Shown: one piece after another, positions 41,928-52,938 of the stretch
Layout: the number at the start of each line of letters is the position of its first letter
Position numbering within the stretch: the stretch's first letter is position 1
DNA from: Gemmatimonadaceae bacterium
GTDB lineage: Bacteria; Gemmatimonadota; Gemmatimonadetes; Gemmatimonadales; Gemmatimonadaceae
NCBI GenBank assembly: GCA_045803545.1
Contig: JBJMOW010000004.1
Span: 160,001-224,000, forward strand
DNA length: 64,000 bases
Direction of reading: 5' to 3'
Notes under the pieces: generated by a model
What the model was told of the DNA's origin: nothing
Databases searched by the model: none
The model's input: only the letters and a program-made list of their open reading frames with translations
Translations under genes and position numbers: made by a program

Positions 41928-42142
41928 GACTGCGGACTGAAAAGCGCACTACCGCGCTGGTAGCTGTTAGCAGCTACCTGATAGCTATCGCTGCAGGCGA
42001 CGGGACAGGCGTCCTTCGCATTCGCACCCACAACCGGCTTTTCCTCAGGATGGTCGCGACCTGTCCCGTTGCAGGCAGCAATCAGCTAACAGCCTGCTGC
42101 TATCAGCTATCAGCGAGGTAGTTCGCATTTAAGTCCGCAGTC
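41928..42142. repeat. Long imperfect inverted repeat (~82-nt arms, ~50-nt loop)
   Basis: Arms 41928-42009 and 42060-42142 align at about 68/83 positions by manual count. Confidence 0.88.
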
Positions 42143-43572
42143 TAAGTAGACGTGAAGCGCGCCAGCACCATTTTCTCAAGTTCCTTTTTTAGCGGCTCAA
42201 GCTCGATGGTTTCAAGTACGTCGGCAGCAAAGGCGTAGGTGAGCAGAGTGCGCGCGGTATCGCGCCCGATCCCGCGGCTGTTCAGATAAAACATCGCCAC
42301 CTCGTCGAGACGGCCAACGGTTGCGCCGTGGGTGCACTTAACGTCGTCGGCGAAAATCTCCAGCTGCGGTTTGGTGTCGACGCGCGCGCTCGGTGAAAGC
42401 AGAAGGTTGTTGTTGCTCTGCTTGCCGTCGGTCTTCTGCGCTTCCGGGTGGACGTAGACCTTCCCATTGAACACGCCGTGTGAGCGTCCGTCCAGCACTC
42501 CCTTGTACACCTCGTGACTCGGGCAATTCGGTGCGATGTGCTCGATGCTCGTCTGATTGTCGATGTGCTGAGTACCGTCGGTGAGATAAAGACCGTTCAG
42601 CGTGCACGTTGCCGCGTCCCCATCGAGCGAAGTGTAGATGTTCGTGCGCGCCAGCGATCCACCGGTCGCGAATGAGAACGAGTGCAGCCGGCTGTCGCGC
42701 GCTTCGCGCGCCTGCACTGTTCCTACGTGAAAGGCCGTTTCGCTCTCGCGCTGGATTTTATAGTGATCGATGTGCGCGCCGTCGCCGAGCACCATCTCGG
42801 TAACAGCGTTGGTGAAGTACTCGCCGTCGCGCAGCGACACGTAGCTCTCGACGAACACAGCCTGCGAATGCAGGCCCGCCACAATGAGATTGCGAGGATG
42901 CGAGACTCCGTCGCCATCGGAAACGAACAGGAGATGGATCGGCCTGTCGACGATCGCGCCCGGCTGTAGCTCGACGAAGGCTCCGTCGCTGATGAATCCG
43001 GTGTTGAGCGCAGTGAAAGCGTGCTGATCGAACCTGGCAATCTTGCCGAGGTAACGCTCGACGACCTCGGATCCTGACTTGATCGCTTGCGCGAGGCTGG
43101 ACGCGCGCACACCGTCGCCCAACGCAGCGAACGATGAGAGATCTTCGGCGAAGCCGCCGTTGATGAAGACCAGAGTGTGCCAATCACTCTCGCCGAAATT
43201 GAACCGGTCGAGTAGCGACGGCGCGATTCCCGCCGGATTCGTAACATCTCCTTTCCGACGCGCCGCGCCGCGCCGCTCGTTGTCGCCGTTCGCTTCTGAA
43301 ACTGTCGACAATCTGTACGAGCGCTCTGCAATCGGCGCGACGCTGGTAAAGTGCCAGTCTTCGTTTTTCGTCGTGGGGAATCCGAGCGCTTCGAAGCGGG
43401 CGATGCCCTGCTTCCGCAAAGACTGCAGCCACTCCGGGCCGAGGGGCAGACGCGCGAACTCTTCGCGATATGTCTCGATCGAGCCGGGCTTACGCGTGGT
43501 CACACCTTCGGCCTTGGATCCTTCCCTGGCCGAATTCTCACGCGTTGATTTTCTGATTGCTGTCTCAGTCAA
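42142..43572 (-). CDS. sufD: Fe-S cluster assembly protein SufD
   Basis: FPTTKNEDWHFT, FNGKVYV, KTDGKQ, PQLEIFADDVKCTHGATVG, FYLNSRGI; TTG start overlapping the sufC stop assumed. Confidence 0.93.
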   Translation of the reverse strand: MTETAIRKSTRENSAREGSKAEGVTTRKPGSIETYREEFARLPLGPEWLQSLRKQGIARFEALGFPTTKNEDWHFTSVAPIAERSYRLSTVSEANGDNERRGAARRKGDVTNPAGIAPSLLDRFNFGESDWHTLVFINGGFAEDLSSFAALGDGVRASSLAQAIKSGSEVVERYLGKIARFDQHAFTALNTGFISDGAFVELQPGAIVDRPIHLLFVSDGDGVSHPRNLIVAGLHSQAVFVESYVSLRDGEYFTNAVTEMVLGDGAHIDHYKIQRESETAFHVGTVQAREARDSRLHSFSFATGGSLARTNIYTSLDGDAATCTLNGLYLTDGTQHIDNQTSIEHIAPNCPSHEVYKGVLDGRSHGVFNGKVYVHPEAQKTDGKQSNNNLLLSPSARVDTKPQLEIFADDVKCTHGATVGRLDEVAMFYLNSRGIGRDTARTLLTYAFAADVLETIELEPLKKELEKMVLARFTST

Positions 43573-44339
43573 GCCACCGCTCCGGCAGCCGCAGGAGTGG
43601 AGCTCTGAATCCAATCGTAGCCCTTCTCCTCGAGCTCGAGCGCCAGCTCTTTCCCGCCTGACTTGACGATTCTGCCATTGGCGAGAACGTGCACGAAGTC
43701 AGGAACGATGTAGTTGAGCAAACGCTGATAGTGGGTGACCACGATCGTGGCGTTGTCGGGCGAGCGAAGCTTGTTCACGCCCTGCGCGACGATGCGAAGC
43801 GCATCGATGTCGAGGCCTGAATCGGTCTCATCGAGAATCGCGAGTCGCGGCTGGAGAACCGCCATCTGAAATATTTCGTTGCGCTTCTTCTCGCCGCCCG
43901 AGAATCCCTGGTTCACTGAGCGTGACAGCATCGACTCGTCCATGTCGACGAGCTTCAGTCTGTCCTGAACGAGATCGAGAAACTCCAGCGGATCAACTTC
44001 CTCCTGGCCGTTGGCTTTGCGAATCTCGTTGTACGCGCTGCGCAGGAAGTAGGCGTTGGAAACGCCGGGGATTTCAACCGGATACTGAAACGCGAGAAAG
44101 ATTCCGTTTTGCGCGCGGACTTCAGGGTCCAGCTCCAGCAGATTCTGGCCGTTATACGTCACGCTACCGCCAGTTACTTCGTACGAAGGATTCCCCGCGA
44201 GAACCTGTGCAAGCGTGGATTTGCCGGATCCGTTCGGCCCCATCACTGCATGCACCTCGCCCGCATTCACTCGTAGCGTAATGCCGCGAAGTATTTCACG
44301 ATCGCCGATGCCGGCGTGAAGATCATTTATTACGAGCAC
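43569..44339 (-). CDS. sufC: Fe-S cluster assembly ATPase SufC
   Basis: GPNGSGKST, FQYPVEIPGV, FSGGEKKRNE, LDETDSGLDIDA. Confidence 0.96.
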   Translation of the reverse strand: MLVINDLHAGIGDREILRGITLRVNAGEVHAVMGPNGSGKSTLAQVLAGNPSYEVTGGSVTYNGQNLLELDPEVRAQNGIFLAFQYPVEIPGVSNAYFLRSAYNEIRKANGQEEVDPLEFLDLVQDRLKLVDMDESMLSRSVNQGFSGGEKKRNEIFQMAVLQPRLAILDETDSGLDIDALRIVAQGVNKLRSPDNATIVVTHYQRLLNYIVPDFVHVLANGRIVKSGGKELALELEEKGYDWIQSSTPAAAGAVA

Positions 44340-44519
44340 GAAACCATTGATTGAAAGTTGTCTGAATCGCGTAAATCGCCTGGCTGAACAACGTCCAGTT
44401 TGCCGTGAAAGGATATCCCGGGGTGCGTGGGCCGGACCGCAGCCAGTTCCACCCAGCAGAGAGTTTGTCGCGGAGCTTTCTGAGCAGCATTAGCCGGGGT
44501 TGGCGGAATTGCGTTGATC

Positions 44520-45956
44520 TTAACCGACGCTTCCTTCGAGTGTGATACCAAGCAGCTGCTGCGCCTCCACCGCGAACTCCATCGGCAGCTCCTTGAACAC
44601 TTCGCGACAGAAACCGCTCACAATCATCGACACCGCATGCTCGGCGCTCAGTCCGCGCTGCTTCAGATAGAAGATCTGATCCTCACCGATCTTTGAAGTC
44701 GACGCCTCATGTTCGAGCGTCGCCGAATTGTTCTGCACTTCGATGTACGGAAACGTATGCGCACCGCACTTGTTGCCGATCAACATCGAGTCGCACTGTG
44801 TGTAGTTTCGCGCGCCGGCCGCCTTCGGCAAAACGCGAACGAGTCCGCGATAGCTGTTGTTTCCTTCTCCGGCGGAGATTCCCTTCGAAACGATCGTCGA
44901 CTTCGTGTTTCTGCCGATGTGGATCATCTTGGTGCCGGTGTCAGCCTGCTGCTTACGGTTCACGACGGCGACCGAGTAGAACTCCCCAGTTGAATTGTCG
45001 CCCTGAAGGATCACGCTCGGATATTTCCAGGTGATGGCTGATCCTGTCTCGACCTGCGTCCAGGAAATCTTCGAGTTGACACCAGCGGCTTTGCCACGCT
45101 TGGTAACGAAATTGTAGATGCCTCCTTTGCCCTCTGCATCACCGGCGTACCAGTTCTGCACCGTCGAGTACTTCACGGTCGCGTTGTCGAGTGCGATCAA
45201 CTCCACGACCGCGGCATGCAGCTGGTTTTCGTCACGCTTGGGTGCCGTGCATCCCTCGAGGTAGCTAACTGACGCGCCTTCGTCGGCGATGATCAGTGTC
45301 CGCTCGAACTGTCCGGTGTTCTTACTGTTGATACGGAAGTAAGTCGACAGCTCCATCGGGCACTTCACGCCCTTTGGCACATACCCGAACGAACCGTCGC
45401 TGAACACCGCCGCGTTGAGGGCCGCGAAGAAGTTGTCGCTGTGCGGCACGACCGTGCCGAGATATTTCTCGACCAGGTCCGGGTGATTCTGGACCGCTTC
45501 CCCGAATGAGCAGAAGATGATGCCGAGCTTCCCCAGCTCATGTTTCATCGTGGTGCCGACAGAGACGCTGTCGAAAATCGCATCGACCGCGACACCAGCG
45601 AGCATTTTCTGCTCGTTGAGCGAGATACCGAGCTTCTGATAGGTCTTCAGCAGCTCCGGATCTACTTCGTCGAGACTCTGTAGCGGCTTGACGCTCTTCG
45701 GCGCCGAGTAGTAGACGAGGGCATTGTAGTCGATCGCGGGATACTGGACGTTGCCCCAGTGCGGCTCCTTCATCGTCAGCCAGCGACGATACGCCTTTAG
45801 CCGCCACTCCAGCATGAACGCGGGCTCGTTCTTCTTCGAGGAGATGGTGCGGATGATGTCTTCGTTGAGGCCGGGCGGGACAGTGTCCGTCTCGACGTCG
45901 GTGACGAACCCGTACGCGTATTCCCGATTGACCAGCGCCTCAATTCCCGAACTCAT
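44520..45956 (-). CDS. sufB: Fe-S cluster assembly protein SufB
   Basis: [39 protein letters not shown]. Confidence 0.96.
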
Positions 45957-45988
45957 TCCAACTCCTTGGCGTTTCTCAACTTCCCTTC

Positions 45989-46026
45989 TTAGATTCAATC
46001 TAAAGTAATCCTGTCGGGATAGTCAA
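45989..46026 (-). promoter_or_regulatory. Putative sufB promoter overlapped by a palindrome
   Basis: Minus strand TTGACT-N18-TAGATT; palindrome TTAGATT-C-AATCTAA (45989-46003) covers the -10. Confidence 0.5.
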
Positions 46027-46123
46027 GCGAACGGCTGTGTATCTATCCCCTTGTCTTGTCAATACTTACGCGACATGAGGCAAGCGGCCGCCCAGTTGGC
46101 CGGACACAATCTAGAGGCACCGA

Positions 46124-46531
46124 ATGACTGGCTCCGCGCGACCTCTTTGGGGGTCGATGGATGGCAATTCCGAGTTTGAGGCCGTGGCTTCGTTGAGTGA
46201 TCTGGCGGAGGGAACGGTTTTACAACGGGTGCGATCGAGTGGTGACGCAGTCTGCCTCGTTCGCTTTCAGAACGAAATTTCCGCTCTGAGCGACATCTGC
46301 ACTCATCAGCATTTTTCAATGTCGCTTGGCGACTTGCTCGCGAATGGCACGCTGCAATGCGCATGGCACGGCGCGAGTTACGACTGCCGGACCGGTGAAG
46401 TGAAGCAGGTTCCGGCCACCAGTCCGCTGCCGGTGTTCCAGGTGCGTGTCGAAGGCGATCAGATAATGGTCGGTCCGCGCTGCAAGCGCGTCGACGGGAA
46501 GTACGAGCCATCAACTGTACGCGTTCCGTGA
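46124..46531 (+). CDS. Rieske-type [2Fe-2S] ferredoxin
   Basis: CTHQ...CAWHG; start 46124 or 46157. Confidence 0.85.
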   Translation: MTGSARPLWGSMDGNSEFEAVASLSDLAEGTVLQRVRSSGDAVCLVRFQNEISALSDICTHQHFSMSLGDLLANGTLQCAWHGASYDCRTGEVKQVPATSPLPVFQVRVEGDQIMVGPRCKRVDGKYEPSTVRVP

Positions 46532-47742
46532 ACCTCCGCTCAGACTTTCCCATCCTCGCGCGAAATCCCGATCTCCATTACCTGGATTCGGCGGCGACAT
46601 CGCAGAAGCCGCAGGTTGTGCTCGATGCGCTTCGGGAGTTTTACGAAACGTCGAACGCCAATCCGCATCGCGGCGCGTACTCACTCTCGGTGCGCGCGAC
46701 CGAGCTCTATCATCAGTCGCGAGCGCTGATCGCCGAGTTCCTTGGCGTTCGTGATTCGGATTGTCTGATCTTCACGCGCGGCACAACCGAGGGTCTGAAT
46801 CTCGTCGCCGGCTCATGGGGCTGGGCAAACGTCGGGTCCGGCGACGAGATCGTCGTCACCGCTCTCGATCACCACGCGAACTTTGTCCCGTGGCAGGTGC
46901 TCGCTGCGCGGAAAGGTGCAAAGTTCCGCATTTGCGAGCTCACGCCGGATGAGAGAATCGATCTCGATCACCTGGCAAAACTGGTGAGTGCGCGCACGAA
47001 GGTGGTCGCGTTCAACCATGTGTCCAACGCGGTCGGCACGATCAATCCGGTCACCGATATTGTGCGGATCGCTCGCGAAAACAGCGACGCGATTCTCGTC
47101 TGCGATGGAGCGCAAAGCGCTCCCCACTTTCCGGTTTCGTTCGATTCCCTGGGCGTCGACTTCTATGCGTTCAGCGGCCACAAAATGCTGGGGCCGATGG
47201 GAATCGGCGGCTTGATCGGGACGCGCGCAATGCTGGAGTCGATGCCGCCTTATCAGACTGGCGGAGACATGATCGAGTTCGTTCACGACGATCGCACGAC
47301 CTGGAACGTGTTGCCGCACAAATTCGAGGCGGGAACACCGAATGCCGCCAACGCGGTCGCTCTCGCCGCAGCAGTCGATTATCTCGCGGGGATTGGAATG
47401 GACCGGGTGATCGCACACGAGCGTTCACTAATATCGCGCGCTCAGGAGAGGCTTTCCGCTGTCGAAGGCATTCGTATTTACGGGCCGCCGCCCGCCGAGC
47501 GCAGTGGAGTCGTCAGCTTTACGATGAACGATGTCCATCCGCACGACCTTGCGACGGTTCTCGATGGCGAGGGCGTCTGCATTCGCGCGGGACATCACTG
47601 TGCACAGCCACTCATGCGTCGCCTCGACGTGCCGGCGACGGCGCGCGCGTCATTCTACGTATACAACGATGAGAGCGACATCGACGCACTCGTTGCTGGC
47701 ATGCTCAAGGCGCGCGAGATCTTTTCTTATGCCGCGTCCTGA
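46528..47742 (+). CDS. sufS: Cysteine desulfurase
   Basis: YLDSAATSQKP, FSGHKMLGP, FEAGTP, RAGHHCAQP. Confidence 0.94.
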   Translation: MNLRSDFPILARNPDLHYLDSAATSQKPQVVLDALREFYETSNANPHRGAYSLSVRATELYHQSRALIAEFLGVRDSDCLIFTRGTTEGLNLVAGSWGWANVGSGDEIVVTALDHHANFVPWQVLAARKGAKFRICELTPDERIDLDHLAKLVSARTKVVAFNHVSNAVGTINPVTDIVRIARENSDAILVCDGAQSAPHFPVSFDSLGVDFYAFSGHKMLGPMGIGGLIGTRAMLESMPPYQTGGDMIEFVHDDRTTWNVLPHKFEAGTPNAANAVALAAAVDYLAGIGMDRVIAHERSLISRAQERLSAVEGIRIYGPPPAERSGVVSFTMNDVHPHDLATVLDGEGVCIRAGHHCAQPLMRRLDVPATARASFYVYNDESDIDALVAGMLKAREIFSYAAS

Positions 47743-48172
47743 TTCCGCCGAGCTTTCGGCGCTGTACCAGGAGATGATCCTGGATCATTACCGGCGGCCG
47801 CGCAACAAAGGCACAATGGAGAACGCTGACGCCAGCGTGGAGATGAAGAACCCGCTTTGCGGGGACGAGATCGGATTGCAGGTCGTGTTCGACGGCGATC
47901 AGATCAGCGATGTGAAGTTCTCAGGACGCGGCTGCTCGATCTCCCAGGCGTCCGCCTCGATGATGACGCAACTGCTCAAGGGCAAGACACGTGCGGAGAT
48001 TGAATCCATTCGCACGCAATTTCGCGAGCTGATGCTTGGAACTACGAAGGCGAGTGACGATCTCGGGCCTTTGCGTGCGCTCTCTGGAGTCGCGCGGTTT
48101 CCAGCGCGTGTGAAATGCGCCCTCCTGGCGTGGAACGCCCTGGAGAGAGCGCTGTCAGCGAATCAAAGCTGA
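47729..48172 (+). CDS. sufU: SUF system sulfur-transfer protein (NifU/SufU family)
   Basis: LYQEMILDHY, NPLCGD, GCSISQASAS, RVKCALLAW. Confidence 0.92.
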   Translation: MPRPDSAELSALYQEMILDHYRRPRNKGTMENADASVEMKNPLCGDEIGLQVVFDGDQISDVKFSGRGCSISQASASMMTQLLKGKTRAEIESIRTQFRELMLGTTKASDDLGPLRALSGVARFPARVKCALLAWNALERALSANQS

Positions 48173-49238: not shown

Positions 49239-49423
49239 AAGCGTACTTAATCACCACCGGTGTCGTTTTCGGGCTGCTGACAATCATTCACCTGTGGCAG
49301 ATGTTTTCGGAGACAGGCCTTCACGGCAACCGGGATCCATGGTTCGTCGTCATCACACTGCTCTCGGCAGGCTTCTGCATCTGGGCCTTCCAGCTACTAC
49401 GGAAGACGTCACGCACGACGTGA
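49235..49423 (+). CDS. Small 2-TM membrane protein
   Basis: ATGA overlap with the upstream stop, GGAGG RBS, two hydrophobic helices. Confidence 0.6.
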   Translation: MKAYLITTGVVFGLLTIIHLWQMFSETGLHGNRDPWFVVITLLSAGFCIWAFQLLRKTSRTT

Positions 49424-50674
49424 GCGGTCGATAAGCTCGACGATCTCCTGCCGTCGAAAAAAGGTCGCCCAGCCATGCGCATCGCTGTCGTGCGCGCTGT
49501 CGCGAATGGTGGAGTCCGCGCCCGCCTCGAGCAGTGCGCGCGCGACATCGACGTGACCTGACAGCACGGCCAGATGTAGAGGAGTAAGCATCGAACCCCA
49601 GTGATTCCAGAGCCCGTCTGGATTCGCACCTCGGGTCAGGAGCCATCTGACAGCGGCGATGTTTCCACGTTTGGCCATCAGATGCAGTACGCCGTCCCTG
49701 TTGAGCGTTGACGGGTCGCTTTCCAGGATCTCCGCGGCAGCCTGTAGATCCCCGAGCCCGAGTGCCACGGTCAAGGTCGGTCCGACTCGCTCACGCATTG
49801 CCCTCAGTACCGGAGCGTCGACGTCGGGCTCGGTTGCATAGGCGACGGCTGTGAAACCGGATGCATCGGTCGCCAATGGATCTGCTCCAAGCTCCAGCAG
49901 TAACTCAATCATCCCTCGCAGCTGTGCGTGGACGGCAAAATGGAGCGGCAGCCGAAAATTTTCGTTGTGGCTCTGCGGCCGTCTGAGTTGCGCCGGGTCG
50001 TGCGCAACGATGCGACGAACTTCATCCGCATCGTTCAGCGCCATCGCCGAGTAGATATGGTGACGTGCGCCCCGACTGACGAGGAAGTCGGCGATCGCGC
50101 GACGCGCGGCATTGTCGACGACTTCCCAACCCGTTGCCCAGCCAATCACCTGGAGCGCGTGATCGTCGCCCTCACCGATGACGTCGCCGCCGGCGTCAGC
50201 GAGTCTCCGCACTATCTCGAAATGACCCGCCGCCGCCGCCCAATGCATCGCGTAGGTATTGTCGCCTTTTTCTCGGGTGTTCGGATCGAGCCCGCGATCG
50301 AGCAGTAGGTCAACGACATCGAGGTGACCGTTGTGTGCGCCGACGTGAAGCAGAGTGTGCTCGTAAGGCTGGTTGCGCGCGTAGAGCTTTTCGGGATGCG
50401 CCTCGAGCAGCGAGCGCAGCTTGTCCGCGTCGCCGCTGCGCGCGGCAGCGAACAGCTGGCCATCCAGAGTCAGGGAATCGACATGCGCTTTCAGAGCGCG
50501 CCAACTGGGAAAGCCATACCGGCGTGCTACGTCGAGTTGGGCTTCGGCCAGTTTTGCCCTGGAGCTCGTTTTACGAATCTCTTGCAGGCGTTGCTTCGCC
50601 TGCTTGCGAAGCCATTCGAGATTCGGCGTGGCCGGCAAGCTGAGCGCGCCGGACTCGGAGGTCTGCTCGGACAT
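49409..50674 (-). CDS. Ankyrin repeat protein with a small helical N-terminal domain
   Basis: TLLHVGAHNGH, AMHWAAAAGH, PLHFAV, TPLHLAVLSGH; N-terminal PNLEWLRKQAK...AQLDVARRYGFPSWRAL. Confidence 0.85.
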   Translation of the reverse strand: MSEQTSESGALSLPATPNLEWLRKQAKQRLQEIRKTSSRAKLAEAQLDVARRYGFPSWRALKAHVDSLTLDGQLFAAARSGDADKLRSLLEAHPEKLYARNQPYEHTLLHVGAHNGHLDVVDLLLDRGLDPNTREKGDNTYAMHWAAAAGHFEIVRRLADAGGDVIGEGDDHALQVIGWATGWEVVDNAARRAIADFLVSRGARHHIYSAMALNDADEVRRIVAHDPAQLRRPQSHNENFRLPLHFAVHAQLRGMIELLLELGADPLATDASGFTAVAYATEPDVDAPVLRAMRERVGPTLTVALGLGDLQAAAEILESDPSTLNRDGVLHLMAKRGNIAAVRWLLTRGANPDGLWNHWGSMLTPLHLAVLSGHVDVARALLEAGADSTIRDSAHDSDAHGWATFFRRQEIVELIDRSRRA

Positions 50675-50815
50675 AGGGCACCTTCTTTCCTTTGAAAGAG
50701 CGAGCTCTTTCGTCGCGCCCGATGTCCGCATTGCGGGCGAGGAATGAAGGTAATGGCGATAAACTGTAGAAGTGGGTTGAACCCTTTACGCGGACCGTCG
50801 GCCGCCCCTCGGCCC
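50675..50815 (-). promoter_or_regulatory. Putative structured cis-regulatory 5' leader of the ankyrin gene
   Basis: Several complementary segments, a possible pseudoknot and anti-SD pairing (see findings). Confidence 0.55.
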
Positions 50816-50889
50816 TGACCGAATCTGAGTTCAGCTAGCGCCGATGGCAACCAGCCTTGACGGCGAAAACCAGACACTACATCGTGAAG

Positions 50890-51045
50890 GCGGCGTCGAA
50901 TCCGCGCCCAACCTCTTGAGACTCCGCCCGGCCGGAGTCCGTAGCGAGGCAAAGGGGGGCAAACTCCCGGATTGATCGTCAGTCCTTTGCGTCACCGCGG
51001 CGCGCTGCTGGGAGAGCACCGTGGTGTGTCCAAAGGAGATTGACG
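50890..51045 (+). promoter_or_regulatory. Putative structured cis-regulatory 5' leader of the 51046 gene
   Basis: Several hairpins and a mutually exclusive anti-SD pairing (see findings). Confidence 0.5.
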
Positions 51046-51714
51046 ATGACTTCCAACAAGGATTTCAAGCGCCTCGTTCGCGCTCGCATGAAGAAGACCG
51101 GTGAAGCGTACACCACCGCCCGGTCGAACGTCCTCAAGAAACCCAAGAAAAACACGGCGATCGATTACGCCGGGCTTGCCGGCATGAGTGACTCCGTGAT
51201 CGAGGAGAAAACTGGCCGCAATTGGGAGCGCTGGGTTAAAGCGCTCGATCACGATGGCGCCGAGAAAATGCCGCATGGTGAGATCGCTGCGCTGGTGAAA
51301 AAAACTTACAAGGTCGGCGAGTGGTGGTCGCAGACCGTGACCGTTGGCTACGAGCGCATCAAAGGACTTCGTGCCAAAGGTCAGCGGCGCGACGGGAGCT
51401 ATGAGGCGAGTAAGTCTCGAACCTTCGACGTGCCGGTCAAAACTCTGTTCGCGGCGTGGGCAGACGGTGTTACCCGCCGGCGCTGGTTGAGTGGAGCGAC
51501 AGTGCGAATTCGCACTGCCACCGAACCAAAGTCAATGCGCCTCGACTGGAACGAATCCATTGTTGCCGTTGGATTCGCGCCGAAAGGAAGCTCCCGGAGC
51601 TCCGTTGCGGTCCAGCACACCAAGCTGCCCGATCGTGAAACAGCTAAGGAGCTGAAGGAATACTGGGCGGCACGTCTCGACGCACTCGGCAATGTGCTCG
51701 CCAGGCGATCATAG
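51046..51714 (+). CDS. Protein with a basic N-terminal helical module, DUF4287-like domain and SRPBCC-like C-terminus
   Basis: KDFKRLVRARMKKTGEAYTTAR; IEEKTGRNWERW; LFAAWAD..VAVQHTKL..YWAARL. Confidence 0.65.
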   Translation: MTSNKDFKRLVRARMKKTGEAYTTARSNVLKKPKKNTAIDYAGLAGMSDSVIEEKTGRNWERWVKALDHDGAEKMPHGEIAALVKKTYKVGEWWSQTVTVGYERIKGLRAKGQRRDGSYEASKSRTFDVPVKTLFAAWADGVTRRRWLSGATVRIRTATEPKSMRLDWNESIVAVGFAPKGSSRSSVAVQHTKLPDRETAKELKEYWAARLDALGNVLARRS

Positions 51715-51822
51715 CTGAAGGCGGAGCCGTTGGCTGCATGAAGGTGGCCGGCAACAGAAACGATTCTCCCGAGCCTCATTCACTCATGCTAGAATGAGGC
51801 TCGGATCCCTCCGGCTATCAGT

Positions 51823-52938
51823 ATGAGCATAAGCCACAACCTGGCATGGACCGCGACACGCGAGGACTACGAGCGCGAAGCGGCAGCGTTGTACGATGCG
51901 CTGCAAGCTCGCCAGGACTCGGCGCTGTGGAATTTCAAATGGATGCATCCGCATTTTCGCGGCAAGACCGTCACCGACGTCGATCCAACCATTCTCGACC
52001 TCGACGATGCGCGACTCGTCGTCGCCCATGAGTATGGGTTCCCGGCGTGGTTCAATCTCATGAAATTCGCGGACGACGTTGGACAGGACGGGCAGCCAGC
52101 ACAGTTCGAGCGTGCGGTCGACGCTGTCGTGTCAGGTGACATCGCTACGCTCAGAGCGATGATTGGCGATGATCCGCAGCTGGTTCATCGGAGATCGGCA
52201 CGCTTTCACCGCGCAACGCTGCTGCACTATATCGCGGCAAACGGAGTAGAAGGCGTCCGCCAGAAAACTCCTCCCAATGCCATGGAAGTCGCGCGGACGT
52301 TACTGGACGCCGGGGCGGATCCAGACGCGCTTGCGATGATGTACGACAACCTGTGCACCACGATGAGCATGCTGGTCTCCAGTGCGCACCCCGCCGGTGC
52401 CGGACTACAGGCAGATCTCGCCGAGCTGCTGTTGGATTACGGCGCAAAGCACAACGGGCCGGGATCAGAGTGGCAATCCGACATCATGACCGCGCTGGTG
52501 TTCGGATACTGGAAAACGGCGGACCGCTTGGCGAAGCGTGGTGCCCCGGCCGACAATCTTCCCACGGCTGCGGGACTCGGCCGCGTCGACGAAGCGACCC
52601 AGCTACTTCCGGCAGCGGATGCACGAAGCCGACATATCGCACTCGCGCTCGCCGCGCAGCACGGCCATGCCAACGTCGTACGAGTTCTGCTCGACGCGGG
52701 TGAGGACCCCAATCGATTCTGCCCGGAGGGGTTTCACTCCCACGCGACTCCGTTGCACAACGCGATTTCCGCCGGCCGGGATGACGTCGTCAAGCTGCTG
52801 CTGGATCGCGGGGCGCGCACGGACATCAGGGATACGATTTTCGACGGGACGCCGCTCGATTGGGCGGTCTACTGCAAGAAGCCGGAAATCGTCGAAGAAC
52901 TACGCAACCGCGGAGCTCCTACCAGCAACGCAGGGTAA
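51823..52938 (+). CDS. Ankyrin repeat protein with a related N-terminal domain
   Basis: ARLVVAHEYGFPAWFNL; TLLHY, ALALAAQHGH, TPLHNAI, TPLDWA. Confidence 0.83.
   Translation: MSISHNLAWTATREDYEREAAALYDALQARQDSALWNFKWMHPHFRGKTVTDVDPTILDLDDARLVVAHEYGFPAWFNLMKFADDVGQDGQPAQFERAVDAVVSGDIATLRAMIGDDPQLVHRRSARFHRATLLHYIAANGVEGVRQKTPPNAMEVARTLLDAGADPDALAMMYDNLCTTMSMLVSSAHPAGAGLQADLAELLLDYGAKHNGPGSEWQSDIMTALVFGYWKTADRLAKRGAPADNLPTAAGLGRVDEATQLLPAADARSRHIALALAAQHGHANVVRVLLDAGEDPNRFCPEGFHSHATPLHNAISAGRDDVVKLLLDRGARTDIRDTIFDGTPLDWAVYCKKPEIVEELRNRGAPTSNAG

Follow-up and report, generated by a model that had tools for sequence, protein, structure and literature searches.

Genes and features at the locus

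The window (the whole stretch of DNA analyzed, i.e., 64,000 nt from a Gemmatimonadaceae bacterium, positions 160,001 to 224,000 of contig JBJMOW010000004.1) carried on its minus strand a gene (49409 to 50674) for a 421-aa protein in which ankyrin repeats follow a helical domain at the N-terminus. A longer open reading frame from an ATG at 50731 was rejected: this ATG fell in a variable loop position and was absent from homologues, and thus the AUG at 50674 was taken as the start codon. The N-terminal three-helix domain (residues 12 to 66; 50477 to 50641, minus strand; 12 K/R and 5 D/E) is proposed as the RNA-binding part, based on its AlphaFold model (pLDDT 83.5), its linkage to the leader RNA, and a weak Glyoxalase_8 match. 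The gene was likely monocistronic, because a small convergent gene overlapped its end: the last part of this membrane-protein-like open reading frame (49270 to 49425, plus strand) ran over the last ankyrin-gene codons.

Two further genes lay on the plus strand: (i) a divergent gene (51046 to 51714) whose product joins a short basic motif at its N-terminus to DUF4287/AHSA1-like domains and (ii) an ankyrin paralogue (51823 to 52938) that had a decayed N-terminal domain stripped of basic residues and lacked a leader, serving as a natural control. An inverted repeat was present just 5′ of the paralogue, at about 51765 to 51800. The region 42142 to 48172 presumably contained SUF iron-sulfur cluster genes (sufB/C/D-like on the minus strand; Rieske-like, sufS-like, and sufU-like on the plus strand).

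The ankyrin gene and the divergent gene were preceded by back-to-back leaders, referred to as class I (50680 to 50814, minus strand) and class II (50889 to 51045, plus strand), an arrangement also found in locus L001. The own genome held one copy of the class I leader; no plasmid match was found for the window's copy, and the viral collections gave three pattern hits, one of which was a full copy; an origin from a mobile element or phage was rejected on these three grounds. One soil metatranscriptome contained a 151-nt contig identical over 50664 to 50805, such contigs showing neither strand, ends, nor level and possibly being DNA; five more pieces from it, likewise possibly of DNA origin, lay on the two leaders, and none lay deep within coding regions; these matches are given no weight as support for expression.

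Architecture and covariation of the class I leader

Sequence comparison identified the class I leader as a conserved double-pseudoknot RNA of about 125 to 150 nt, predicted to hide the ribosome-binding site. Single-sequence folding of the window's copy was not significant (z -1.51; 15 of 200 shuffles folded as well), and therefore the case rests on homologues; the predicted minimum free energy (MFE) fold contained the anti-Shine-Dalgarno (anti-SD) helix and four hairpins, but other pairs replaced P1. Two data sets were used: (i) alignment A1, a plain MAFFT alignment of the window plus 64 loci from a protein-first GTDB scan (at least 66 loci), unfitted to any structure, and (ii) a motif parse of the window plus 186 loci, 175 of which were parsed (170 with P1), with 12 more dropped for ambiguous register and 151 distinct rows resulting. 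Among the matches listed, 65 of the 66 protein-first loci carried the motif upstream (the remaining one, L004, had an internal deletion), and the leader occurred in Gemmatimonadota, Acidobacteriota, Alpha- and Gammaproteobacteria, Planctomycetota, Actinomycetota, and one Haliangiales bin, i.e., in six phyla.

Covariation among homologue leaders, which the earlier note had named as the check on its structure, was found in both data sets. On A1, 93.7% of 1621 cells were paired and 11 of 25 pairs changed both sides; none of 500 shuffles reached the observed pairing, and slid controls paired at 35 to 44%. In the motif parse, six column pairs exceeded every pair of the tree-based null. The parse itself used pairing to select P1, P4, and the PK2 partner, which makes their counts partly circular; the PK1 and Pa pairs were not selected in this way. 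G-U pairs were common and A-C rare, which fits an RNA on the sense strand, and class I leaders showed no variation at many stem bases, a trait shared with riboswitch aptamers.

The elements were ordered 5′ to 3′ as P1, Pa with its kissing loop, an A-rich joint, P2 with its triloop, one purine, the PK1 3′ strand, a variable linker, and P3 enclosing P4, all on the minus strand. P1 (50800 to 50814) was a hairpin with 4 of 5 pairs changing both sides on A1 and two pairs exceeding the tree-shuffle null, and the G-rich bases at its loop end (50805 to 50808) formed pseudoknot PK1 with a strand after P2 (50769 to 50772). Two PK1 pairs were G-U wobbles in the window's copy; 3 of 4 PK1 pairs changed both sides on A1, where the outermost pair was formed in only 26 of 65 rows, and the third pair (A-U 70, G-C 59, C-G 9, and G-U 9 of 151 rows) exceeded every null pair. 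Pa (50788 to 50798) consisted of a 2-bp stem (50797 to 50798 with 50788 to 50789) closing a loop that served as the kissing strand; it was 100% paired on A1, and its varying pair (C-G 79, A-U 67, and U-A 2 of 151 rows), unused in parsing, lay above every null pair.

The kissing loop of Pa (50790 to 50795) paired with the loop of P4 (50724 to 50729) to form PK2, which had 6 bp and was 99.7% paired on A1. An 8-nt complement between these regions, proposed by the earlier note as a long-range pseudoknot, was present in the window's copy, but only 6 bp of it were kept across homologues, and its last two bases (50788 to 50789) covaried with 50797 to 50798 in Pa instead. PK2 was nearly invariant in close copies, divergent copies changed both sides at five of its six positions, and it was fully paired in 33 of 34 loci found by a model without the pseudoknot; 6 of 7 divergent rows paired PK2 with their own loop, compared to 4 of 49 cross-pairs. 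P4 itself (50716 to 50739; core 50735 to 50738 with 50717 to 50720) was 96.9% paired on A1, with an inner pair of C-G 92, U-A 50, and G-C 7, a count that is partly circular since the stem was picked by pairing.

P2 (50774 to 50784), preceded by the conserved A-rich joint (50785 to 50787), had previously been read as a T-loop-like hairpin. In a T-loop, a UUCRA-type pentaloop is closed by a conserved U...A trans pair; at 50774 to 50784 the first and last of these bases covaried as a Watson-Crick U-A/C-G pair and the three middle bases varied, and thus a 4-bp stem with a 3-nt loop replaced the T-loop reading, the hairpin as such being present like that at 50800 to 50814 (P1). The closing pair of P2 was C-G in 82, U-A in 64, and U-G in 5 of 151 rows, with no mismatch. 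A variable single-stranded linker (50752 to 50768) followed PK1, the PK1-to-P4 distance being 27 to 48 nt in 169 of 170 parsed rows. P3 was formed by the anti-SD strand (50740 to 50751), assigned from duplex energies against shuffled and swapped partners, and the SD-containing strand (50680 to 50691), assigned from SD pairing in the MFE folds of homologous leaders. Both hairpins that had been described within this helix, i.e., P4 and P5 (50694 to 50711), were present; P5 could close no more than 7 bp around a 4-nt loop (an eighth pair would shrink the loop to 2 nt) and was optional among homologues (25 of 65 A1 rows, counted by eye). All nine coordinate pairs given by the earlier note returned the letters that it had reported, and its list was without PK1 and the 2-bp stem of Pa.

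SD sequestration and promoter

The SD-hiding helix had been correctly located before: the anti-SD and SD strands formed 10 of 11 pairs, the exception being an A-A, and this helix lay 6 nt ahead of the AUG at 50674 and formed in the MFE fold. Across 167 rows (some with mis-picked starts, the window's included), the own anti-SD:SD duplex averaged -12.7 kcal/mol, compared to -7.2 for shuffled and -9.8 for swapped partners, and at least 5 of 8 SD-window bases paired with the anti-SD region in the MFE folds of 123 of 162 leaders. The computed cost of freeing the SD, with knots uncounted, had a median of 6.6 kcal/mol and was 5.3 kcal/mol in the window's copy; the PK2 strands were paired in 102 of 162 SD-free folds. 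As for a conserved alternative anti-SD partner, the purines before P2 (the segment tested in the full form) paired no better than shuffles (-6.5 vs. -6.0), and this candidate was rejected.

A predicted -35 box TTGCCA (50845 to 50850, minus strand) and, 17 nt downstream, a predicted -10 box CAGATT (50822 to 50827, minus strand) were recognized as sequence patterns, which would place the transcription start near 50815 to 50820. Of 165 upstream regions from homologues, 100 had the pattern TTG-N16/18-xAxxxT at a distance of 4 to 13 nt before P1 (shuffled mean 3, maximum 9); a generic promoter scan of the window found no promoter at the leader. With this sigma-70-like pattern just upstream, the motif likely represents the whole 5′ untranslated region (UTR).

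Distribution and linkage to the N-terminal domain

An RNA-first pattern scan of metagenomes gave at least 120 loci, of which 80 with long flanks were examined. Among the matches listed, 71 of these 80 had a gene with the N-terminal domain 88 to 123 nt after the kissing strand; the other nine comprised four cut by contig ends, three half motifs, one chance match, and one copy before a broken gene. A Pfam scan covered the window protein plus 62 of the 71 downstream proteins (short and frameshifted ones left out), and ankyrin repeats were found in 52 of 63, the others having HEAT, LRR, FliG_C, or no Pfam family. Ankyrin repeats, by which the earlier note had defined the controlled gene, thus did not hold as the partner. 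The constant partner is a basic three-helix N-terminal domain of about 55 aa: the cargo varied (ankyrin, HEAT, LRR, FliG_C, VOC, peptidase-like, or unassigned), and the domain was constant.

The RNA was present in 24 of 101 genomes of Gemmatimonadota, the window's phylum, and 80 of these genomes (all 23 other RNA-positive ones plus 57 negative ones) were searched with a domain profile. Of 39 RNA hits, 37 adjoined a domain hit and two were remnants without the 3′ knot strand; conversely, 38 of 40 domain genes had the RNA (one of them only with filters off), and of the two others, one was frameshifted and had its leader deleted, and one was a decayed domain within an operon. In an acidobacterial class census, 13 of 15 RNA hits preceded a domain gene (the other two were remnants), and the 16 domain hits comprised 13 with RNA, two with minimal modules, and one false hit. 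Five chosen genomes, one of them shared with this census, had 19 of 20 leaders before domain genes. One planctomycete bin harbored 11 leader copies, 10 of which were followed by domain genes of differing cargo; the remaining copy (L221:1501-1650), an intact leader before a lipoprotein-like signal-peptide protein without the domain, was the clearest exception, possibly controlled in trans by the other domain proteins of that genome. The leader was found in only 4 of 81 Actinomycetes genomes, and the family was therefore patchy.

Same-cargo homologues without the N-terminal part were also without the leader (L250 and L253; L292 to L294). Half-leader remnants were observed beside unrelated or broken genes (L200, L201, L299, L300, L072, L078, and L104), which suggests frequent gain and loss of the cassette. 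The RNA subtype tracked the domain tree (6 changes compared to 50 when shuffled), but kinship explains this, and RNA-domain coevolution on the tree was rejected as being confounded by physical linkage.

The N-terminal domain

The domain was modeled as three helices (AlphaFold pLDDT 83.5, as above), and the class I domain comprised about 10,000 clusters at 50% identity. RNA-linked domains kept R/K15 (200 of 204), K19 (203 of 204), and Q41 (178 of 190); internal repeat copies, a small sample of 12, kept W53 (12 of 12) but not K19 (1 of 6) or Q41 (1 of 12). Eight rows flagged as RNA-negative were composed of one with RNA by covariance model, three with sister or minimal leaders, one broken gene, and three decayed domains including the 51823 paralogue.

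No clear solved relative or known RNA-binding fold was found by PDB sequence search (best E 0.017, a chain named only JUBO2), Foldseek (nothing at E<0.001), or VIA structure comparison (best Z 4.5); an Atlas structure search gave only unnamed clusters (0.83 to 0.84), and neither a PHROGs match nor a helix-turn-helix (HTH) match was found for the domain. The N-terminal part of Glyoxalase_8 (PF20066) and residues 15 to 59 of NCBIfam PRK05973 were matched weakly, below curated cut-offs, by 56 and 38 of 78 members, respectively, and the PRK05973 N-terminus was matched to the class I domain (HHalign 96.7%). These two families thus have a three-helix segment homologous to the class I domain; unlike here, their descriptions neither set this segment apart as a domain nor tie it to RNA.

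Sister leaders and minimal variants

The class II leader of the divergent gene displayed the same helix and knot order with a different sequence, and had its own promoter-like boxes at 50857 to 50883; its single-sequence fold was not significant (z -1.44), and its covariation was thin. All 19 phylum homologues that kept the basic N-terminal motif of the divergent gene had the class II leader (17 of them served to build the model). The leader was missing from two homologues that had the same cargo but no motif, and in a divergent homologue of the 51046 gene, inspection by eye showed a leader that had diverged too but was similarly laid out. No homology was detected between the class II motif and the class I domain, and phmmer with the class II motif gave close relatives, named hypothetical or, where named, AHSA1/START.

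Leaders of like layout were also found in (i) PRK05973 "DNA helicase" genes of Alphaproteobacteria (L295 to L298; 4 of 4, about 160 nt before the start codon) and (ii) Glyoxalase_8 genes with varied C-terminal parts (L263 to L267), which had a structured leader some 170 nt ahead of the start codon; its 7-nt kissing complement was recognized by eye in 5 of 5 and with a strict pattern in 3 of 5, the likeness of the Glyoxalase_8 leaders being limited to the kissing complement and the long SD-side helix. Neither of these two further leaders, of which that of PRK05973 was conserved, had a counterpart in Rfam. The knot sequences differed or were inverted between sister classes, which would fit coevolving protein-RNA pairs over one metabolite pocket.

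Minimal variants had the 5′ module only (L283:1420-1506, L290, L291, L301, and L303). In small samples, domain-plus-glyoxalase genes had this module only (3 of 3), and glyoxalase-only relatives were without both domain and module (3 of 3). In L283, L290, L301, and L303, the PK1 3′ strand formed the base of the SD hairpin (by eye); folding of the module would therefore free the SD, pointing to activation.

Proposed mechanism and alternatives

The leader may well act as an operator for autoregulation, with the small basic domain at the N-terminus of the protein encoded behind it as the binder, a reading given about an even chance. As shown by covariation, the 5′ module (P1, PK1, Pa, A-rich joint, and P2) docks by the 6-bp loop-loop kiss onto the tip of the long P3/P4 arm, the base of which pairs the SD. 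In the computed folds, the SD is mostly paired by default, at a cost that should still permit some basal translation. From gene context, the N-terminal domain probably recognizes the folded module of its own leader. On the model of S15, S4, L20, and Aca2, the bound domain would keep the leader closed and limit how much of its own protein is made, and repression of translation is thus put forward with the scales about level; the direction of control is the weakest and an uncertain step, and the minimal variants would favor activation. RNA and domain seem to move as one portable cassette, with fusion to cargo of unrelated kinds (ankyrin, VOC/glyoxalase, HEAT, LRR, FliG_C, or helicase-family ATPase). 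The wider proposal, held at slightly less than even confidence, is a superfamily of plug-in feedback cassettes, in which a knotted kissing-loop operator and an RNA-binding domain of about 55 aa form orthogonal pairs that are fused to thousands of unrelated proteins and self-control their translation.

Physical linkage alone would yield co-occurrence of RNA and domain. Other readings were weighed as well. The earlier note had offered a riboswitch or a protein-binding translational leader; a conserved pseudoknotted 5′ leader with a predicted hidden SD stood, and of the two options, protein binding fits the gene context best. In a riboswitch, the 5′ module would have a small molecule or an ion as its ligand and control SD access, the domain being tied to it otherwise, e.g., through the same ligand. 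The compact two-knot fold with many invariant bases, the SD-hiding platform, the 5′ UTR place behind a predicted promoter with covarying structure in several phyla, the aptamer-like PK1/SD-hairpin overlap of the minimal variants, and the intact L221 leader without a domain in cis would all suit such a switch, but the cargo domains share no metabolic or transport theme, the primary knot sequence is not kept between sister classes, the tested segment offers no conserved alternative anti-SD partner, and domain copies without the RNA have lost basic residues; a riboswitch is thus considered rather unlikely.

The operator reading draws its co-occurrence evidence from data that apply in full to a leader-binding domain that turns translation on instead, or to a cargo that gates binding, i.e., an RNA-output one-component sensor with positive or signal-dependent feedback. 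A mostly closed default (median 6.6 kcal/mol) leaves more room for activation than for repression, PK1 competes with the SD hairpin in the minimal variants, and the PK2 strands still pair in 102 of 162 SD-free folds; in the full form, however, all helices covary and the linker seems, by rough geometry, long enough for their coexistence, and the known autogenous operators, as far as covered in PMC10931766, repress, so that activation is held to have only a small chance. Smaller still is the chance of a leader without any ligand, acting as a fixed or temperature-sensitive translation brake or as a stability element inherited with the 5′ end of the gene: a stable SD helix as default and linkage alone could account for such a brake, yet it would need P3 only, and the 5′ module and both knots are strongly selected, the module persisting without the kiss in minimal variants and being lost where the domain is decayed or absent.

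It is rare for a complex two-knot RNA to occur in six phyla and yet be missing from Rfam. If the domain binds the leader, it would be a new RNA-binding domain, and a function would follow for the unexplained N-terminal part of Glyoxalase_8, of PRK05973, and of many ankyrin proteins in bacteria; bacteria would then move translational autoregulation as a portable RNA-plus-domain unit, and the naturally different pairs could serve as orthogonal parts in synthetic biology. If a small molecule is bound instead, a new riboswitch class would result. Through the PRK05973 leaders of Alphaproteobacteria, a test organism that can be cultured may come within reach.

Comparison with known systems

HDV-like ribozymes have a nested double-pseudoknot helix order plus catalytic bases; an HDV-like or other small self-cleaving ribozyme was rejected, the leader having no Rfam match and a different helix order. 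SAM-II, preQ1-II/III, and ZTP are SD-sequestering pseudoknot riboswitches that share with the leader a compact knotted fold, invariant bases, and SD control; in contrast, the SD of the leader lies in a separate long helix rather than in a knot, and the leader has no Rfam match, no metabolic gene theme, and no known ligand.

The earlier note had not recognized a named family, and the searches agreed: in Rfam 15, the best E for the window was about 1 with all scores far below gathering score, 20 plus 17 homologue and sister loci gave no leader match (the hits were limited to a cobalamin riboswitch unrelated to the leader and, elsewhere, a tRNA), and 7 plus 6 further loci gave none. No description of the leader family was found in the literature compared, some supplementary motif sets (PMC5737381, PMC11109978) lying outside the comparison, and the alignments of Soil-1, Solibacter-1, and GUCCY-hairpin in the supplement of PMC2864571 differed from the leader by eye. 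bioRxiv 10.64898/2026.10.21.760802 describes 1.5 million motif clusters and one motif before glyoxalase genes, and the leader family may be among these clusters.

Aca1 and Aca2 are small helical proteins that bind a structured motif in their own 5′ UTR, the motif differing between subfamilies (as given in the consulted sections of PMC13551039). The leader resembles them in its small helical domain, 5′ UTR motif, and class-specific motifs, with binding proposed here; according to the same sections, Aca proteins regulate phage operons as HTH proteins that stand alone and bind DNA as well, and the Aca2 motif consists of hairpins, whereas the class I leader displays a two-knot fold, a fused domain, no HTH match, and three viral pattern hits (one full copy).

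Autogenous ribosomal-protein operators with pseudoknots include E. coli rpsO/uS15, the alpha operon/uS4, and rpmI-rplT/bL20 (as presented in part of PMC10931766). They likewise have a pseudoknotted 5′ leader at the ribosome-binding site, and here too the encoded protein is the proposed binder: the structured class I leader overlaps the ribosome-binding site and consistently precedes one candidate RNA-binding domain, with L221 as the clear exception. Compared to these operators, the genes behind the leader are not ribosomal, the helix order differs, and no primary RNA target is known for mimicry. The leader is thus an uncatalogued, cross-phylum RNA and a member of no described family, most likely working like an autogenous operator in which, compared to the ribosomal-protein operators, the proposed binder is a small domain fused to unrelated cargo.
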